Shown here piece after piece: positions 9,495 to 31,092 of a stretch of DNA of 32,619 bases. Each line of letters begins with the position of its first letter. Position 1 is the stretch's first letter. The notes under the pieces are model-generated. The model searched no databases and was not told the DNA's origin. It worked only from the letters and a program-made list of their open reading frames with translations. Source of the DNA: a bacterium (lineage in GTDB: Bacteria; Electryoneota; Electryoneia; Electryoneales; Electryoneaceae); the NCBI GenBank assembly GCA_043801585.1, contig JAZDLX010000003.1, positions 1-32,619 on the forward strand. The letters run 5' to 3'. Position numbers and translations under genes: made by a program.

Positions 9495-10844
9495 ATGAAA
9501 AGAATTCTCGTTCTTGGCGCCGGGAAAAGTTCTCCCACTCTGATCTCGTACCTGCTTGAGCATTCCGAGAAACATGACTGGAACGTCACGGTTGCCGATC
9601 TCGATCGTGAACTCGCCCAGCAGCGGGTCGGGGGACATCCCCGCGGGAAGGCAATCGCGTTCAATGCCGGCGATGCCGACGTTCTCGACGAATTGATCAG
9701 GGACGCCGATATTGTCGTGAATTTTCTTCTCCCTCGTTTTCAAACGCTCGTCGCCAACGCCTGCGTGACGCACGGCACCCATTTTGTCAGTGCATCCTAC
9801 CGCAATCCGGAAATCCGAGAGATGGACGCCGCAGCAAGACGCAAAGGCGTTTTGCTGTTGAACGAAATGGGGCTCGATCCGGGTATCGACCTGATGTCCG
9901 CGATGGATATCATTCAACGTGTGCGGGATAAAGGAGGCATCATCCGGAGTTTTGCCAGCTATGGTTCAGGCATTCCCGCGCCGGAAAACCATTCCAACCC
10001 GCTACGCTATGTGATCACCTGGAATCCCTACAACGTGGTCATGGCGGGGAGCAGCGGGGCCCAGTATCTCGAGGACGGGCAGATCCGGGCTCTCCCCTAT
10101 CACCGCGTCTTCACCCAGACCTGGTCGGTGGACGTCGACGGCGTCGGGAAGCTGGAGGCCTACGCCAACCGCGACAGCATCGCCTATCTGGACTATTTCG
10201 GATTGGAACACGCCGAAACGATGATCCGGGGCACCCTGCGCTACCCCAACTGGGGCAAAACGTGGTCGAAAATCATCAATCTCGGCCTGACAAACGACAC
10301 CCTGACTATCCCGCAACTGGAACAACGCAGTCTGCGCGAAATTGTAGAGATGTTTCTGCCGCCACACCTGGCTGGATCCGATGTGCGCCAGCGTGTCGCC
10401 GAGTATCTGAACATCAAGCCCACCGGACGCGCGATGCAGCAGATGGAATACCTGGGCCTCTTCTCGGATGAGATCCTTGGAACGAAAGGCCAGACTGCTG
10501 CCGACGCCATGGTCCATGTGCTGCAGATGAAACTGCCATTGCGGAAAGAAGACCGCGACATGGTCATCCTCGTCCACAGGATAACCGTTGAATACCCGGA
10601 GGCCGAGTCGTGTCGGGAGGAAATCGTCTCCACATTCCTCTGCTACGGGGATCCCAACGGGCACACCGGGATGTCCAAAACCGTCGGCCTTCCAGCAGCC
10701 ATCGCCGTCAAACTGATCCTGACGGGGAAACTGGAAGCAACCGGGAGCCAGCTGCCGTTGCTGCCGGAGATTTACAAACCTGTTCTGGAAGAACTGGAAC
10801 AGCTCGGAATGCCGTTCAGGGAGAAGGTCACTCCGCTTGACTGA
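9495..10844 (+). CDS. Saccharopine dehydrogenase/reductase (Lys9-like)
   Basis: KRILVLGAG, NEMGLDPGIDLMSAM, TWNP, LEAYANRDS, RGTLRY and MSKTVGLP motifs. Confidence 0.92.
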   Translation: MKRILVLGAGKSSPTLISYLLEHSEKHDWNVTVADLDRELAQQRVGGHPRGKAIAFNAGDADVLDELIRDADIVVNFLLPRFQTLVANACVTHGTHFVSASYRNPEIREMDAAARRKGVLLLNEMGLDPGIDLMSAMDIIQRVRDKGGIIRSFASYGSGIPAPENHSNPLRYVITWNPYNVVMAGSSGAQYLEDGQIRALPYHRVFTQTWSVDVDGVGKLEAYANRDSIAYLDYFGLEHAETMIRGTLRYPNWGKTWSKIINLGLTNDTLTIPQLEQRSLREIVEMFLPPHLAGSDVRQRVAEYLNIKPTGRAMQQMEYLGLFSDEILGTKGQTAADAMVHVLQMKLPLRKEDRDMVILVHRITVEYPEAESCREEIVSTFLCYGDPNGHTGMSKTVGLPAAIAVKLILTGKLEATGSQLPLLPEIYKPVLEELEQLGMPFREKVTPLD

Positions 10845-11332
10845 GAAGGGAAACGCATAGCTTTCCGCCAGGGGGCACCGCTGCGCTCATGGCCTGACGG
10901 AACTATAGTATGAAGTGGTTTGTAATTCTTTCCAGTTCCCTGGTTCTTCACGTAGTTCTTCAGCGTACCCTCATCACCATGATGACCGACCGTTGATATA
11001 AAGTAACCTTTTGTCCAAAACTCGCCACCCCAAAGCCACAATTTGACCGAGGGAACACGCCTGAAAACCTCTCGCGCGGTGATACTCTTTAGGGTCCGCA
11101 TAAGCTTGGTCGGACTGTAGCTGGGCACCGAGTGAACCAAGAAATGCGCATGATTGCGATCCGTCCCGATCTCCAAAAATGTGATCTCATACCGCTTCGA
11201 TATCTCAAGACATACATCACGTATCGCTTCATCTACACGCTGATCAACCACCTCTTGTCGATATTTGGCTGTACAGACGATAGGATACAGCAATACCGAC
11301 ACATTATGATGTTTATGGATCACCTCGCTCAT
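10772..11332 (-). mobile_element. tnpA: IS200/IS605-family Y1 transposase TnpA, probably decaying
   Basis: HNVSVLLY.IVC.AKYR, HAH (HUH motif), LWGGEFWTKGYF and NYVKNQG (catalytic Tyr). The C-terminus reads through into the end of the opposite-strand gene. Confidence 0.9.
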
Positions 11333-21490: not shown

Positions 21491-23200
21491 ATGGACAACC
21501 ACCAACAACCTGCGGAATCAGGCGCAAGTTCTGCGGCGGATACGGCGTTCAGTCTGTCACGCCGGGGATTTATCAAGATGACGATCGCAGGCACTGCGGC
21601 GACAATGGGAGCTTTCGGCGCCGCGGCGATTCACCCTTCAAAGGCGTCAGCACACCCCTCGACATCCATCCTGTCGATGGAGGATATCCCCTCCCGTTCC
21701 ATTGAAGAGGCGACCATCGATGATTTGATGAAGGGCATGGCTGACGGCAAATGGAATGCCCGCTCCATTGCCGAGGCCTACCTGACAAGGATCGAGGCGA
21801 TGGATCGAAGAGGACCCAACCTGGCGAGTGTGATCGAAACGAACCCGGATGCCCTCGGCATCGCGGACAGGCTCGACGGCGAGCGCCAGAAAGGAAAATT
21901 TCGCGGGCCACTTCACGGAATCCCCGTTCTCGTCAAAGACAACATTGCGACGCATGACAAAATGCAGACCACTGCCGGTTCCCTGGCGCTCGACGGATCA
22001 CAGCCGCCCGAAGATTCCTGGGTCGCGGCAAAACTGCGAGAGGCGGGGGCGGTGCTGCTGGGCAAGGCAAACTTGAGCGAGTGGGCGTTCTTCCGCGGAG
22101 ACTATGGCATCTGCGGCTGGAGTGCCCGCGGAGGGCAGTGCCGCAATCCCTACGCGACCGACCGTACAACAAGCGGTTCCAGTTCCGGATCGGCGGTGGC
22201 AACTTCCGCCAATCTGACCGCAATCTCCATCGGCACCGAGACCAACGGATCCATCGTCTCGCCTTCATCGGTAAACGGAGTCGTGGGCTTGAAGCCGACT
22301 GTCGGTCTGGTCAGCCGCTACGGCATCATCCCCATCGCCCACACCCAGGACACCGCCGGTCCGATTACACGAAGCGTGCATGACGCCGCCATCGTCCTTG
22401 GGGCGCTTACAGGTGTGGACAAGAACGACCCGGCGACCGCTGATTCAAAAGGGAAATCCTACACCAACTACATTCAGTATCTCGATCCTGATGGACTCCA
22501 CGGCGCTCGTATCGGGGTGGCACGGGAATTCTTCGACATGCGCCCGGGAGTTTCCGGGCTCGCCGAAGACGCGGTGAAACTGATGCAGAGTCTTGGCGCG
22601 GAAATCGTCGATCCCATCGAACTGCCGTGGATGGACGAAGCTGAGAAGCATTCGCTTGAGGTGATGTACTACGAGTACAAGCACGACCTGAACGCCTACC
22701 TGAATTGGCTGGGAAAGAACACAAAGGTCCATTCGATGGCGGAGGTAATTGAGTTCAACAAACAACACGCCGACGTCGAAATGAAATTCTTCGGCCAGGA
22801 GGATTTGGAAAAGGCGCAGGAGCGTGGTCCGTTGACCGACGAAAAGTACCTGAACGCGCTGAGCGAACTGAAACGGCTCGCCCGTGACGAAGGGTTGCAC
22901 AAGGTCATGGACGAGCAGAAGCTCGACGCGATTGTCGCACCGACAGCGGGGCTGGCGTGGGTCATCGACCCGATTAATGGCGACCATTTTACCGGCGGCA
23001 GCTCCTCCCCCGCCGCAATCGCTGGATGCCCGGACATCTCGGTGCCGATGGGGCATGTTTTCGGATTGCCGACAGGACTGTCGTTCTTCGGGCGAGCCTG
23101 GAGCGAACCGACGCTGATCCGTCTCGCCTACGCCTACGAGCAGGCGTCGAAGATGCGGCGTCCACCCCAGTTCCTGCAGACGGCGAATCTGGGCAATTGA
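21491..23200 (+). CDS. Tat-exported amidase-signature family amidase
   Basis: SRRGFIK Tat motif with ASA cleavage site; GIPVLVKDN, SGSSSGS and IGTETNGSI (Ser-cisSer-Lys triad). Confidence 0.92.
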   Translation: MDNHQQPAESGASSAADTAFSLSRRGFIKMTIAGTAATMGAFGAAAIHPSKASAHPSTSILSMEDIPSRSIEEATIDDLMKGMADGKWNARSIAEAYLTRIEAMDRRGPNLASVIETNPDALGIADRLDGERQKGKFRGPLHGIPVLVKDNIATHDKMQTTAGSLALDGSQPPEDSWVAAKLREAGAVLLGKANLSEWAFFRGDYGICGWSARGGQCRNPYATDRTTSGSSSGSAVATSANLTAISIGTETNGSIVSPSSVNGVVGLKPTVGLVSRYGIIPIAHTQDTAGPITRSVHDAAIVLGALTGVDKNDPATADSKGKSYTNYIQYLDPDGLHGARIGVAREFFDMRPGVSGLAEDAVKLMQSLGAEIVDPIELPWMDEAEKHSLEVMYYEYKHDLNAYLNWLGKNTKVHSMAEVIEFNKQHADVEMKFFGQEDLEKAQERGPLTDEKYLNALSELKRLARDEGLHKVMDEQKLDAIVAPTAGLAWVIDPINGDHFTGGSSSPAAIAGCPDISVPMGHVFGLPTGLSFFGRAWSEPTLIRLAYAYEQASKMRRPPQFLQTANLGN

Positions 23201-23281
23201 GTGACAGTTACCTAATTCCGGCGTTGGAACGAGATGTTCATCACAACGCATTCTGGAATTAGGTAACTGTCACTCAATTGC
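23193..23281. repeat. 89-bp palindromic element, copy 1 (27-bp perfect inverted arms, 35-bp centre)
   Basis: GCAATTGAGTGACAGTTACCTAATTCC (23193-23219) and its exact reverse complement (23255-23281). Confidence 0.95.
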
Positions 23282-24564: not shown

Positions 24565-24618
24565 TTGAGTATCCGTTCATTATGAAACCCGGGACTGAAG
24601 TCCCGGGCCACCCGCCGG

Positions 24619-24707
24619 GCAATTGAGTGACAGTTACCTAATTCCACGATGCGAAGGGATGAACGTCTCGACCCAACCCTGGAATTAGGTAACTGTCACT
24701 CAATTGC
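24619..24707. repeat. 89-bp palindromic element, copy 2 (inverted relative to copy 1)
   Basis: Same 27-bp arms (24619-24645, 24681-24707). The reverse complement of its 35-bp centre matches the copy 1 centre at 25/35 positions. Confidence 0.95.
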
Positions 24708-24764
24708 CTGACCATTTAGCAGAAACCCGGCCATCAAGCTGACCGGGCCACCCTACTTCAATGT

Positions 24765-24800
24765 TGTGTCGGGTCGTTAGCGCAGCGGAGACCCGACACA
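24765..24800. repeat. REP-like hairpin
   Basis: TGTGTCGGGTC-GTTAGCGCAGCGGA-GACCCGACACA, an 11-bp perfect stem. Confidence 0.65.
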
Positions 24801-24900
24801 GGTCTCACCTTGACCATCCATCTGTACAGCATTCTAAAACTATATGAAACCCGGGACGGAAGTCCCGGGCCACCCAAGCGTTGTTTTCATCAAGATGCCA

Positions 24901-27659: not shown

Positions 27660-27729
27660 TAAACTATTGATTTTATGACGGCAACAGCTATCGCGTGCGG
27701 ACCGTCAAACATTTGGCACGTTTCTTGTA
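27660..27729 (+). promoter_or_regulatory. Candidate sigma54 promoter with upstream IHF site
   Basis: TGGCACG-TTTC-TTGTA (27714-27729) against consensus TGGCACG-N4-TTGCW. Minus strand AATCAA-TAGT-TTA (27660-27672) matches the IHF consensus WATCAA-N4-TTR. Confidence 0.55.
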
Positions 27730-28022: not shown

Positions 28023-28367
28023 ATGAGTCCAACCGTCGATCTTTACGAACACCGTATGCCGACTCTCGACGAGTTGGAAACGGATCTTGAAAACTGGCAG
28101 CAACGTATCGCCAGTTGGGCCGAACGGATTCCGTGGGCGGAACCCGACCAGCGTGATTTGGCGATGTCCACGGCGAAATTCCTGCGGAAGATCGTCGCAG
28201 AGTCCTGGATTCACCTGCTGGCCTGCAAGGCTCGTGGCGCCGATCCCATGGACAATTCGGCCTTTCGCGCCCGCCGTCTGCACCGTCAGTTGCTGACATT
28301 TGGTCCGAAGCTGGCGATGAAAATGGAAGAGCGTCTTCCCGAGGCCGTTCCGAGCCTGGCTGCCTGA
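28023..28367 (+). CDS. Hypothetical 114-aa helical protein
   Basis: Strong AGGAGG RBS and its own terminator downstream; no family recognised. Confidence 0.75.
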   Translation: MSPTVDLYEHRMPTLDELETDLENWQQRIASWAERIPWAEPDQRDLAMSTAKFLRKIVAESWIHLLACKARGADPMDNSAFRARRLHRQLLTFGPKLAMKMEERLPEAVPSLAA

Positions 28368-28691: not shown

Positions 28692-29702
28692 TCAGGATTC
28701 GAAAACTTTTTTCTCCAGCGTGGCGAGCAGGGCTTTGACATCCGGATCATTCTTGAGATCCACGCGAAAAGCACGGCGCAAGTGAGCCAGGGCGCTACCG
28801 GACACACCGAGGCGTTCACCCAGTTTCTTTACGCCTCCCTCGTCCACGGCATGCCGCAACGCGAGTTCGACAACGAATTTCCGTCCCGGATGCCGGCTTC
28901 GCGCTTTTCTGAGTTCCTGCGTGCTGGTTCCAAAGTACTCAGCAGCCACGGTGAGGATGCGGAGGAAATGCAGCATGGAACTGTCAACAACGTTTTCATC
29001 GCGTGGTGTTTCAAGGGAACGGCGGCGTCCCTTGGCTCTCTCGTAATAGCGATCGACAAACCCCTCCGAACCGAGCAGACTCATCGCGACAACTCGATCG
29101 AGCAGATCACCGCCCCCGTCCTGTTTGACGCCTTCGATGATGTACCGGTAAAAACCGTCGGTGGGATGATCCGGCATCAGCCGTTTGCACTTTTCAAGCA
29201 CCTCATCCTGCGCGAACCATTCCGGAACCGGCGCAGTGCCCGTATAGATCGGGAAAGACGTCCAACGATTGCTGCTGACCTCTCCCCACTTTCTCGCTTC
29301 CGATTCGTTTGACCAGTGCTCACCAATGATCGGTGAGATGTGCACACGACGGACAACCGGAAGAAAAAGGTCTCCCTCCTCGACAAGAATCGCACGATGC
29401 CTGTCGCGGATCAACGATTCAGATTGCCCTTTCGCCGCACGCAGCCGGTTGAAGAAACCCGCCTGGGTGCGATGGACAAATCGTGACAGGGGAAGTCTCC
29501 CCGCCCGGAGAAACAACAGAGCGGATTTTTCAAGCAGGGCAAAGGCATAAACGGTCACACCAGCGGGGAGAGCGGCATCTCCGAGGGATTGGAAAAAAAG
29601 CTCCCTGTCCTCATCGCCATGAAAGAGGGATACTTCCTCTCTGGCTCGAATCTGGACGAGGTACGTCGCTTGGGGTATATGAATCCGGACGGGTCGAGAC
29701 AT
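28692..29702 (-). CDS. RAYT/IS200-like (Y1_Tnp) HUH-fold protein with C-terminal helix-turn-helix; catalytic residues substituted
   Basis: Collinear with the MxRxxRI..PG..YHV..RGN...IF....DR..FL / AYCLMxNHYHLL / GHLFQGRYKAILV / RYIHLNP / WSSY..Y.G...P.WL / LGSEDFV / IG..FG.S.SAV family pattern, but reads AFALLEKSALLF and RRVHISP at the catalytic motifs. Confidence 0.8.
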   Translation of the reverse strand: MSRPVRIHIPQATYLVQIRAREEVSLFHGDEDRELFFQSLGDAALPAGVTVYAFALLEKSALLFLRAGRLPLSRFVHRTQAGFFNRLRAAKGQSESLIRDRHRAILVEEGDLFLPVVRRVHISPIIGEHWSNESEARKWGEVSSNRWTSFPIYTGTAPVPEWFAQDEVLEKCKRLMPDHPTDGFYRYIIEGVKQDGGGDLLDRVVAMSLLGSEGFVDRYYERAKGRRRSLETPRDENVVDSSMLHFLRILTVAAEYFGTSTQELRKARSRHPGRKFVVELALRHAVDEGGVKKLGERLGVSGSALAHLRRAFRVDLKNDPDVKALLATLEKKVFES

Positions 29703-29798
29703 GGCCGTTTAAAGTACATCCCATGAAGAGGTGGTACAAGGGCAGTGGAGGAGACGAGTGCGACGAACCGCGCTTTTCTCCTCCGCGAGGTACATCCG

Positions 29799-30965
29799 TC
29801 AGTCTACAAGTGCCGCGTTCCCGCTCCTGGTGATATCAAACATGCGTTCAAGGGCGGCATTCGACTCACGGGTTGTTTCCGGGTCCACAGCCACGTGCCA
29901 ACGAAGTTCGCCCTTTTCAACCGCACGTAAACTTTCAAGCAACGCCTCGGGGCTGATCCGGAACATCGTCGAGCAGAGACAGGCGTACGGAGCAAGACTG
30001 TAAACCTCTTTCCCCTGTTTTACCATCTCCTGCCCGATCCGCGCAACCAGGTGATTTTCCGTTCCCACGGCCCATTTCGAACCCTCGGGACTTTCCGCAA
30101 TCGTTTTTATAATCTTGGAAGTGGAACCGGAGTTATCAGCCTTCTGCACGACCTCGAAACTGCATTCGGGATGCACAATGATCTTGATGTCCGGGATCCG
30201 TTTGCGCCAGGCATCCACATGCTCGGGGATAAAATGCTGGTGAACACTGCAGTGACCCTGCCAAAGCAGCACTCTCGCATTACGAATCGCCACGGCGGAG
30301 TTCCCCCCAAGCGGCTCTTCGGGATTCCAAACGACCATCTTATCGAGCGGAATTCCCAGTTCATAGCTCGTGTTGCGGCCGAGATGCTGATCCGGGAAGA
30401 AGAACAGTCGCTCACCCTTCTCCAGCGCCCAAGTGATGATCTTGTGGGCATTTGAAGAGGTGCAAATGGTGCCACCGTGACGGCCGACGAACGCCTTGAC
30501 ATCCGCTGTGCTGTTGATGTAGGTAACCGGCACGAGTTTCGACGTGTCGATCACTTCTCCAAGCTGTTCCCAGGCCTCTTCAATGTCCCCGATCTGCGCC
30601 ATGTCCGCCATCGTACACCCGGCACGTTTGTCCGGCAGGATCACCTTGACAGAATCCGGCGTGAGCATGTCCGCCGTCTCGGCCATGAAGTGGACGCCGA
30701 GAAAAATCACGTACTTCGCGTCTTTCACCTCGGAGGCGTATTGCGCAAGGACCAGTGAATCGCCGGTTTTATCCGCAAACTGAATCACCTCGTCACGCTG
30801 GTAGTAATGCCCAAGCAGAACGAGGTCCCTGCCGAGACGTTTACGGATCTCGAGGATTTCAGCCAGCACCGCCGGGGCCACCACCGGCTCACCCATATAT
30901 TTGACGTCCTCGATCGGCTGTTCAGGATTCCAGCGTACTTCAAGGGGTTGTGTCTTGATCGCCAT
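29799..30965 (-). CDS. nadA: Quinolinate synthase
   Basis: GHYYQ, GDSL.LA, VHFMAET, GCTMADM, YINS, CTSSNA, GHCSVH, VHPEC and C.CSTM motifs. Confidence 0.96.
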   Translation of the reverse strand: MAIKTQPLEVRWNPEQPIEDVKYMGEPVVAPAVLAEILEIRKRLGRDLVLLGHYYQRDEVIQFADKTGDSLVLAQYASEVKDAKYVIFLGVHFMAETADMLTPDSVKVILPDKRAGCTMADMAQIGDIEEAWEQLGEVIDTSKLVPVTYINSTADVKAFVGRHGGTICTSSNAHKIITWALEKGERLFFFPDQHLGRNTSYELGIPLDKMVVWNPEEPLGGNSAVAIRNARVLLWQGHCSVHQHFIPEHVDAWRKRIPDIKIIVHPECSFEVVQKADNSGSTSKIIKTIAESPEGSKWAVGTENHLVARIGQEMVKQGKEVYSLAPYACLCSTMFRISPEALLESLRAVEKGELRWHVAVDPETTRESNAALERMFDITRSGNAALVD

Positions 30966-31092
30966 GAACTTGCACACATCCTTGTGAAAGGGTTTGCAAA
31001 GATGTTGTTCGTACAAACGTTAGTAGCAATATAAAGGATTGATCGGCAGGTGATAAGTGAGCGACCGGGGTGGAGTCGGCATTGCGAGACCG

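Follow-up and report, generated by a model that had tools for sequence, protein, structure and literature searches.

What part can a transposase homologue play in its host once the residues that cut DNA are gone and the gene itself is intact? The question is raised by P0001, a gene for a 336-aa protein at 28692..29702 on the reverse strand of the 32,619-nucleotide stretch of bacterial DNA analysed here (the window). An initial annotation had called it a catalytically dead but intact RAYT/HUH homologue; our analysis of its reading frame, orthologues and selection identifies it as a catalytically dead TIRYT/RAYT-derived protein. The reading frame is uninterrupted, opens with ATG and lies on the same strand as nadA across a 96-bp gap (nadA ends at 29799), and the motifs first quoted for it (YLV, KSAL, ESLIRDRH, RRVHISP and others) are all found in the translation where they had been placed. 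The reported absence of a flanking REP array or IS ends was likewise confirmed, as no repeat family lies within 700 bp and the gene is not bracketed by any inverted repeat longer than 7 bp. Searched alone, the P0001 sequence matched nothing in Pfam, NCBIfam or PDB, and one of 30 members of its clade touched PF01797, at E 0.13. P0001 lacks the traits of an IS200/IS605 TnpA, being 336 aa long and not a short Y1 protein, having no PF01797 match and not being multicopy.

A homologue search returned 47 proteins, namely P0001, 32 proteins at 47-87% identity without Pfam domains and, beyond a gap, 14 PF01797 proteins at 22-33% identity to P0001. At E <=0.001 a profile built from 30 orthologues matched 10,740 representatives, and the 150 best-scoring ones were taken. 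The end-to-end RAYT-like homology proposed initially was recovered by HHalign, which aligned the 30 orthologues with 19 intact relatives at probability 100 (E 3e-50) over 335 columns, gap-free along residues 1-174. The AlphaFold2 model of P0001 has a mean pLDDT of 88 and a pTM of 0.66, and its top Foldseek match is TnpA-REP (4er8, E 6e-6); superposition of the model with VIA placed residues 1-204 on 4er8 with Z 14.7 and rmsd 2.6 over 156 aligned residues, which confirms the HUH fold. The N-terminal part of the protein (aa 1-225; 29028..29702, reverse strand) thus comprises a HUH/Y1 fold with a subclass-2.1 extension, as shown by VIA and by HHalign to intact relatives. The C-terminal helix-turn-helix of the initial annotation is also present, and can now be specified as a domain resembling DnaA domain IV (aa 244-336; 28695..28973, reverse strand), with VIA Z scores of 13.8 to 3pvp and 13.3 to 1j1v, rmsd 1.7, and a profile match to 1j1v at E 1.5e-4. 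A homodimer prediction returned a score of 0.00, which carries no weight either way.

The active site of 4er8 is described, in the portion of that paper available to us, as Y115, H59, H61, N119, H123 and E161 (PMC3479197). In the HHalign register its two HUH histidines H59 and H61 correspond to S60 and L62 of P0001, its catalytic Tyr115 to R119, and N119, the Asn of YxxxNP and a metal ligand together with the histidines, to S123. The former HUH motif therefore now reads S60-A61-L62 (29517..29525, reverse strand), and the former catalytic Tyr and ligand Asn lie at 29334..29348 on the same strand. We aligned 187 of 192 proteins (five were left out for length), comprising 32 rows of the P0001 clade and 155 outgroup rows. 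Histidine at position 60 or 62 occurs in none of the 30 clade rows that have a residue there, position 119 is Arg in 32/32 rows and Tyr in 0/32, and the ligand Asn is found in 0/32 clade rows against 127/128 intact relatives. Both HUH histidines and the Tyr are kept in 128 of the 155 outgroup rows. The same loss is seen in each of the 16 orthologues taken from genome sequences, so that the proposal of a dead HUH homologue is borne out and extends to every orthologue, with the same substitutions in all clade rows. Since Tyr is missing at positions 113-124 in every clade row (0/32), the catalytic helix offers no replacement nucleophile.

Five full-length relatives elsewhere in the tree (P0093, P0112, P0119, P0126 and P0158) also lack both His and the Tyr. 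A single origin of the P0001 clade and five other triple-dead proteins was rejected by an AU test (p 0.005; the group was picked after an earlier tree was known), which indicates that catalysis has been lost more than once. Separately, P0034-P0047, three of which carry the name of Pseudomonadales or Proteobacteria, form a tight RAYT-like clade of 279-292 aa. Here His stands in place of the catalytic Tyr in 14/14 and both HUH His are kept in 12/14, possibly another domestication or an altered chemistry.

P0001 is present as one copy in each of the 16 genomes of the window's bacterial family, which includes Candidatus Electryonea clarkiae (FCB group, Electryoneota). In a protein search, 63 further genomes of the phylum yielded no orthologue, and a profile search of the phylum added only weak matches (E 3e-9 or weaker), whose position and length mark them as DnaA domain IV or as short TIRYT genes. 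When 185,579 species genomes were scanned with a pattern, 15 loci came back, on the same contigs as the family orthologues. The 16 genome matches, at 48-85% identity, contain zero internal stops. By the Nei-Gojobori method, the two closest pairs gave dN/dS of 0.066 (dS 1.6, near saturation) and 0.084 (dS 0.52); in the same pairs nadA gave 0.079 and 0.042, and recN 0.106 and 0.095. Most pairs are saturated: of 120, 23 have dS <2, median 0.33 and maximum 0.44; 0.2-0.4 is reported for functional RAYTs in the accessible part of one study (10.1101/2021.07.10.451892). The single copy in 16/16 and the dN/dS of 0.07-0.08 in the closest pairs are those of a gene kept by purifying selection, as had been supposed at the outset.

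The tree of P0001 shares 7 of 11 splits with that of DnaA in 14 genomes, including all five strongly supported ones, and the four splits that disagree are all weak. Patristic distances of P0001 correlate poorly with those of DnaA (rho 0.29) and nadA (0.21), against 0.74 between DnaA and nadA; for DnaA this is because of a long branch to one subgroup. The P0001 clade is fully supported, and its stem measures 1.2-1.5 changes per column, in a quick tree of 109 rows and a careful tree of 36 rows with the catalytic columns removed. P0001 thus has the single copy, fixed locus, purifying selection and vertical descent of a domesticated gene. With the catalytic loss shared by all orthologues, dN/dS far below 1 and one copy in every genome, the tests to which the initial annotation had exposed itself failed to overturn it: we found no intact orthologue, no dN/dS near 1, no replacement Tyr and no fold other than HUH. 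P0001 is neither artefact nor decay.

P0001 descends from a TIRYT flanked by TIRs, a member of TnpA-Y1 subclass 2.1.2, and not from a RAYT associated with REPs. The TIRYT and its TIRtron were described by Di Nocera et al. 2013 (PMC3733652, consulted in excerpt), and the sections of Quentin et al. 2018 (PMC6006769) at hand define subclass 2.1.2 by a Y1 domain with a Bac_DnaA_C-type HTH and no nearby REPs, probably the same thing. P0001 resembles this subclass over its full length, with a Y1 core, the 2.1 extension and a DnaA_C-type HTH, and its nearest intact relatives bear TIRs with a GGGGTCA-type tip; unlike them, it has no HUH, Tyr, Asn or TIRs, stands as a single copy at a fixed locus family-wide, and shares with the nearest of them only 21-26% identity. 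We fetched 80 loci of intact relatives, 46 of which had the full gene and flanks. An inverted repeat of at least 11 bp was found in 37 of these 46 active loci, while the longest flanking inverted match was 10 bp or less in 16/16 dead loci. The GGGGTCA-type tip occurred upstream in 40/46, downstream in 30/46 and on both sides in 28/46 active loci; a loose 7-mer version of it appeared in the dead loci upstream in 2/16, downstream in 2/16 and on both sides in 1/16. Ten outgroup nadA loci had no common neighbour and no Y1 gene, so that the insertion could not be placed.

Upstream of P0001, all 16 loci carry CTTG-N3, a spacer of exactly 17 bp, TAnnTT and then 5-8 nt to the ATG; this conserved sigma-70-type promoter, predicted at 29711..29740 (reverse strand) in the window, 8 nt before the ATG, is new to the present analysis. 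Upstream of 3,445 ORFs of the window's genome the same pattern gave 194 matches at spacer 17, 80 at 18 and 28-47 elsewhere, a peak at 17 that makes it the likely housekeeping promoter. A generic promoter scan overlooked the element in front of P0001, which has only the TTG of the -35 consensus. The conserved element may be taken as indirect evidence of expression, and its short distance to the start codon would imply an mRNA that is leaderless or nearly so. Among the active elements, 26/46 have TTGAC, equal to a -35 box, at the inner end of the left TIR, and in 14/46 a promoter pattern lies within 9 nt of the start. The flanks of the P0001 loci are otherwise unconserved, with TTG as the only possible upstream relic of a TIR, and inheritance of the promoter from the TIR is thus a guess. 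In the history that we propose, a TIR-flanked HUH tyrosine transposase would have been fixed once in the ancestor of the bacterial family: the TIRtron may have landed downstream of nadA, after which its TIR tips disappeared, with the inner TIR end possibly retained as a -35 box. A burst of change would then have rebuilt the active-site face, which has been frozen since.

In DnaA, R399 is reported to read the DnaA box from the minor groove, and the helix from residue 434 onwards to read it from the major groove (PMC5742627, in the part available). A mixed profile aligned to 1j1v at the E value given above places R268, R270 and R274 of P0001 on DnaA R399, R401 and R407, and S301-H307, the predicted recognition helix (28782..28802, reverse strand), on D433-H439. 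The near-invariance of residues at these DNA-reading positions is a second new observation: R268, R270, R274, S/T301, G302, S303, A304 and H307 are 91-100% conserved in the clade and variable in the 155 outgroup proteins, with G302 and H307 invariant, S303 at 91% and A304 at 97%. Positions frozen in the clade and variable outside it are as expected for a fixed target. By region, conservation in the clade is 0.78 for the DNA-reading loop and HTH against 0.29 for the linker and 0.41 for the tail. The DnaA-domain-IV-like domain would accordingly read a fixed site, with R268 and R270 reaching into the minor groove and helix S301-H307 lying in the major groove, and as the helix reads S-G-S-A in place of the D-H-T-T of DnaA, this target is not expected to be the DnaA box. 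The dead HUH domain, which keeps a basic helix-C face, would provide added DNA contacts or a surface for a partner or ligand.

A protein that has lost its cutting residues and its transposon ends, and yet is kept as a single intact copy in 16/16 genomes behind a predicted promoter, likely has a host DNA-binding role. On balance we therefore favour the reading that P0001 is a domesticated, sequence-specific dsDNA-binding host protein, probably a transcription regulator or chromosome-site binder. Our searches for its target were negative within their scope. Neither a conserved operator near the P0001 promoter nor an excess of synonymous-site conservation was found across the loci; sites like the ancestral TIR were not in excess in the window's genome (28 against 27 in controls); over-represented intergenic words were all residual repeats, with no unexplained motif; and the covariation of protein windows with TIRs in 46 active relatives reached a best r of 0.19, the 95% permutation limit being 0.23. 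Also against this reading, conservation of the N-terminal core (0.72, with 26/125 positions invariant) equals that of the HTH domain (0.67, with 11/67), so that the dead HUH domain may be the seat of the main function.

The foremost alternative, which we rate as rather unlikely, is that P0001 binds REP hairpins or TIR arms via its dead HUH domain and so restrains or competes with active RAYT/TIRYT enzymes. It draws on the helix-C face that grips the hairpin in 4er8 according to part of PMC3479197, which stays basic and conserved in the P0001 clade (H77, R78, N85, R86, R88, R101); the window's genome has 13 other Y1 genes, all bearing the HUH motif, and many repeat families, and the GAAACCC REP pattern is found in 11/16 family genomes. 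The repeat families of the window, however, each accompany an intact transposase of their own at another place. Around an intact TIRYT at C189:27235-27936 of the same genome stand four copies of the 27-29-bp arms, which occur in 2/16 family genomes; the GAAACCC hairpins, 75 in this genome, bracket intact RAYTs at contigs C152 and C208, and the nearest one is 3846 bp from P0001. In its exact form the REP pattern ranges from 0 to 99 copies and is missing from 5/16 genomes, one of them a 2-contig genome, while P0001 is constant. Repeats that accompany other enzymes and vary between genomes have other owners, and come and go while P0001 stays. In addition, subclass 2.1 is reported without REPs in the part of PMC6006769 available to us, and TnpA-REP is, as far as the consulted text of PMC3479197 goes, a monomer, which leaves little room for a dominant-negative heterodimer. 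Of the non-nuclease roles first proposed, DNA binding and regulation of transcription thus fit best, and the one as binder of the window's hairpins was not borne out.

The genome of the window is unusually rich in Y1 systems, with several REP-flanked RAYTs too. Its contigs C112, C122, C165, C189 and C206 carry five intact short TIRYT genes, each with its own TIR family, dispersed in 17-83 regions. Within the window, a MITE-like TIR-arm doublet lies on each side of a Memo-like gene (23193-23281 and 24581-24875), the second nested among GAAACCC hairpins. At 10772-11332 (reverse strand) there is an IS200-type TnpA (PF01797, E 6e-32) with HUH and Tyr motifs, whose frame continues into the 3' end of the convergent gene; it is probably a truncated, decaying copy.

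It is also conceivable, though distinctly unlikely in our estimation, that the rebuilt active-site face has taken on new biochemistry, to which the HTH would be secondary; the face might sense a ligand, bind a partner or carry out non-canonical chemistry. Around the old site the clade has its own invariant polar residues (D100, H102, R103, R119, H129, W130, S134, E135 and R137), and the long stem of the clade is followed by stasis. Against such chemistry stand the missing Tyr at 113-124 and the lack of any His at 60 or 62 on the HUH strand, which make Y1-type strand transfer impossible by established HUH chemistry (PMC8266576), and the contact residues of the HTH are frozen too.

A role in replication or chromosome organisation, exerted through origin-proximal or dispersed sites by the DnaA-like domain, appears very unlikely. 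The fold of DnaA domain IV, the core-gene distribution and the neighbours recN, murA and dnaE speak for it, and Quentin et al. suggest, in the part of PMC6006769 that we could consult, that a DnaA-type domain may target subclass 2.1 proteins to the fork. The family nevertheless has a normal DnaA, its D-H-T-T helix intact in each of the 14 complete domains read (14/14), and DnaA boxes of the ordinary kind lie downstream of dnaA; the recognition helix of P0001 is unlike that of DnaA. As the domain is ancestral to the transposase, its likeness to DnaA needs no replication role. The notion that P0001 replaces DnaA was rejected, given the normal DnaA and DnaA boxes of the family.

The neighbourhood of the gene raises a further possibility, to which we give a slim chance: P0001 could serve nadA and NAD synthesis specifically, as a regulator or as an operon partner. 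The nadA gene (quinolinate synthase, PF02445/TIGR00550; 29799..31016, reverse strand, likely start 30965) lies directly upstream of P0001 on the same strand in 14/16 genomes, so the synteny looked for in the initial annotation exists, although the partnership is not obligate: in the two other genomes (G031 and G038) P0001 keeps its predicted promoter but follows divergent genes (proS-type and dioxygenase), and nadA lies on other contigs. P0001 also has its own predicted promoter in 16/16, and no significant hairpin was found between nadA and P0001 (z -1.4). The conserved block comprises a PMT glycosyltransferase, nadA, P0001, a convergent 114-aa gene, GNAT, recN and murA, and with the whole block syntenic the adjacency is expected from slow rearrangement. 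From its sequence context, the link between nadA and P0001 looks like one of gene order and not of function.

The convergent 114-aa gene (28023..28367, forward strand) belongs to no known family. It is 61-97% identical in 15/16 family genomes, was not found elsewhere in the phylum except for one broken weak match, and adjoins P0001 in 9/16 loci, several other loci ending at a contig edge. Its dN/dS is 0.03-0.04 in the closest pairs, its region has 100% identity to an RNA-run contig, and its look-alikes in the Atlas reach only 0.85-0.86. A terminator-like hairpin from a consensus scan lies between it and P0001 (28390..28413), but the scan found 3 such sites against 1.9 expected, so that this one is weak on its own. 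A sigma-54-like site at 27711-27725 upstream of the 114-aa gene was seen in only 2/9 loci. Before nadA there is a Rex-box-like palindrome with two mismatches (30982-30999). Such matches number 3 in the window against 0.1 expected, and the genome has a Rex-type gene; a Rex-like box within three mismatches is kept at only 3/14 nadA loci. The consensus used agrees with the listing in the part of PMC2883068 available to us.

Finally, recent inactivation and neutral decay is scarcely credible, for although the GC3 of P0001 (0.60) lies below that of its housekeeping neighbours (0.67-0.78) and the very shallow contigs of three RNA runs from one study reached, at depth 2-3, the 114-aa gene and a portion of nadA and left P0001 uncovered, the low dN/dS of the closest pairs, the stop-free frames of all 16 genome matches and the identical substitutions clade-wide refute it.

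P0001 is a catalytically dead TIRYT that has become a core gene of the whole family, with unusually strong conservation, and whose function we infer to be DNA binding in the host. A bolder extension of this reading, which we think unlikely but worth stating, is a HUH transposase turned family-defining core regulator, in which the DnaA-like domain sits on a fixed site and the dead HUH domain senses ssDNA hairpins, tying the control of transcription or replication to DNA structure. If true, P0001 would be the best-conserved case in a class of nuclease-dead TnpA factors that has evolved several times without having been described, and that would match TldR on the HUH side. Clean, soluble and 336 aa long, it also lends itself to testing the benefit that hosts draw from taming TnpA-type transposases, its own hosts being uncultured. 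Our search of the literature on inactive or domesticated RAYT, HUH and Y1 proteins met no description of a conserved catalytically dead TnpA-Y1, although the supplements of PMC6006769 could list some. According to the available text of that paper, the main survey of the superfamily, sequences without HuH or Y were discarded as probably non-functional, so that motif-less members were filtered out, and standard profiles miss P0001 entirely. The word transposase does not occur in what we could consult of the main text of the Electryonea paper (PMC9324843).

Among known systems, TnpA-REP of E. coli (4er8) shares the HUH core fold with P0001 (Z 14.7 as above), which in addition has the DnaA-IV-like domain. 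Single-copy, vertically inherited genes are also found in the domesticated RAYT groups of Bertels et al. 2017 (PMC5581495, as far as available), where RAYTs are treated as domesticated with an intact catalytic centre. RAYTs so described retain that centre, and their groups 2 and 3 are REP-flanked (PMC5581495; 10.1101/2021.07.10.451892, both seen in part), whereas P0001, which has neither feature, behaves as a core gene without the motifs; three members of its clade tested against the RAYT profile NF047646 scored 15.6 bits or less, the cut-off being 80. With DnaA domain IV (1j1v, 3pvp) it shares the fold at rmsd 1.7, the minor-groove Arg loop and the His that ends the recognition helix, but it has no AAA+ domain, its N-terminal domain being HUH, its helix differs in the four residues discussed, and the true DnaA is a separate protein. 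The closest conceptual precedent is TldR, the nuclease-dead TnpB repressors (Wiegand et al., 10.1101/2023.11.30.569447, from the section at hand), in which an IS200/IS605-type nuclease was repeatedly domesticated as a dead DNA-binding regulator. TldR derives from the RuvC nuclease TnpB and is RNA-guided, whereas P0001 comes from the HUH TnpA side.
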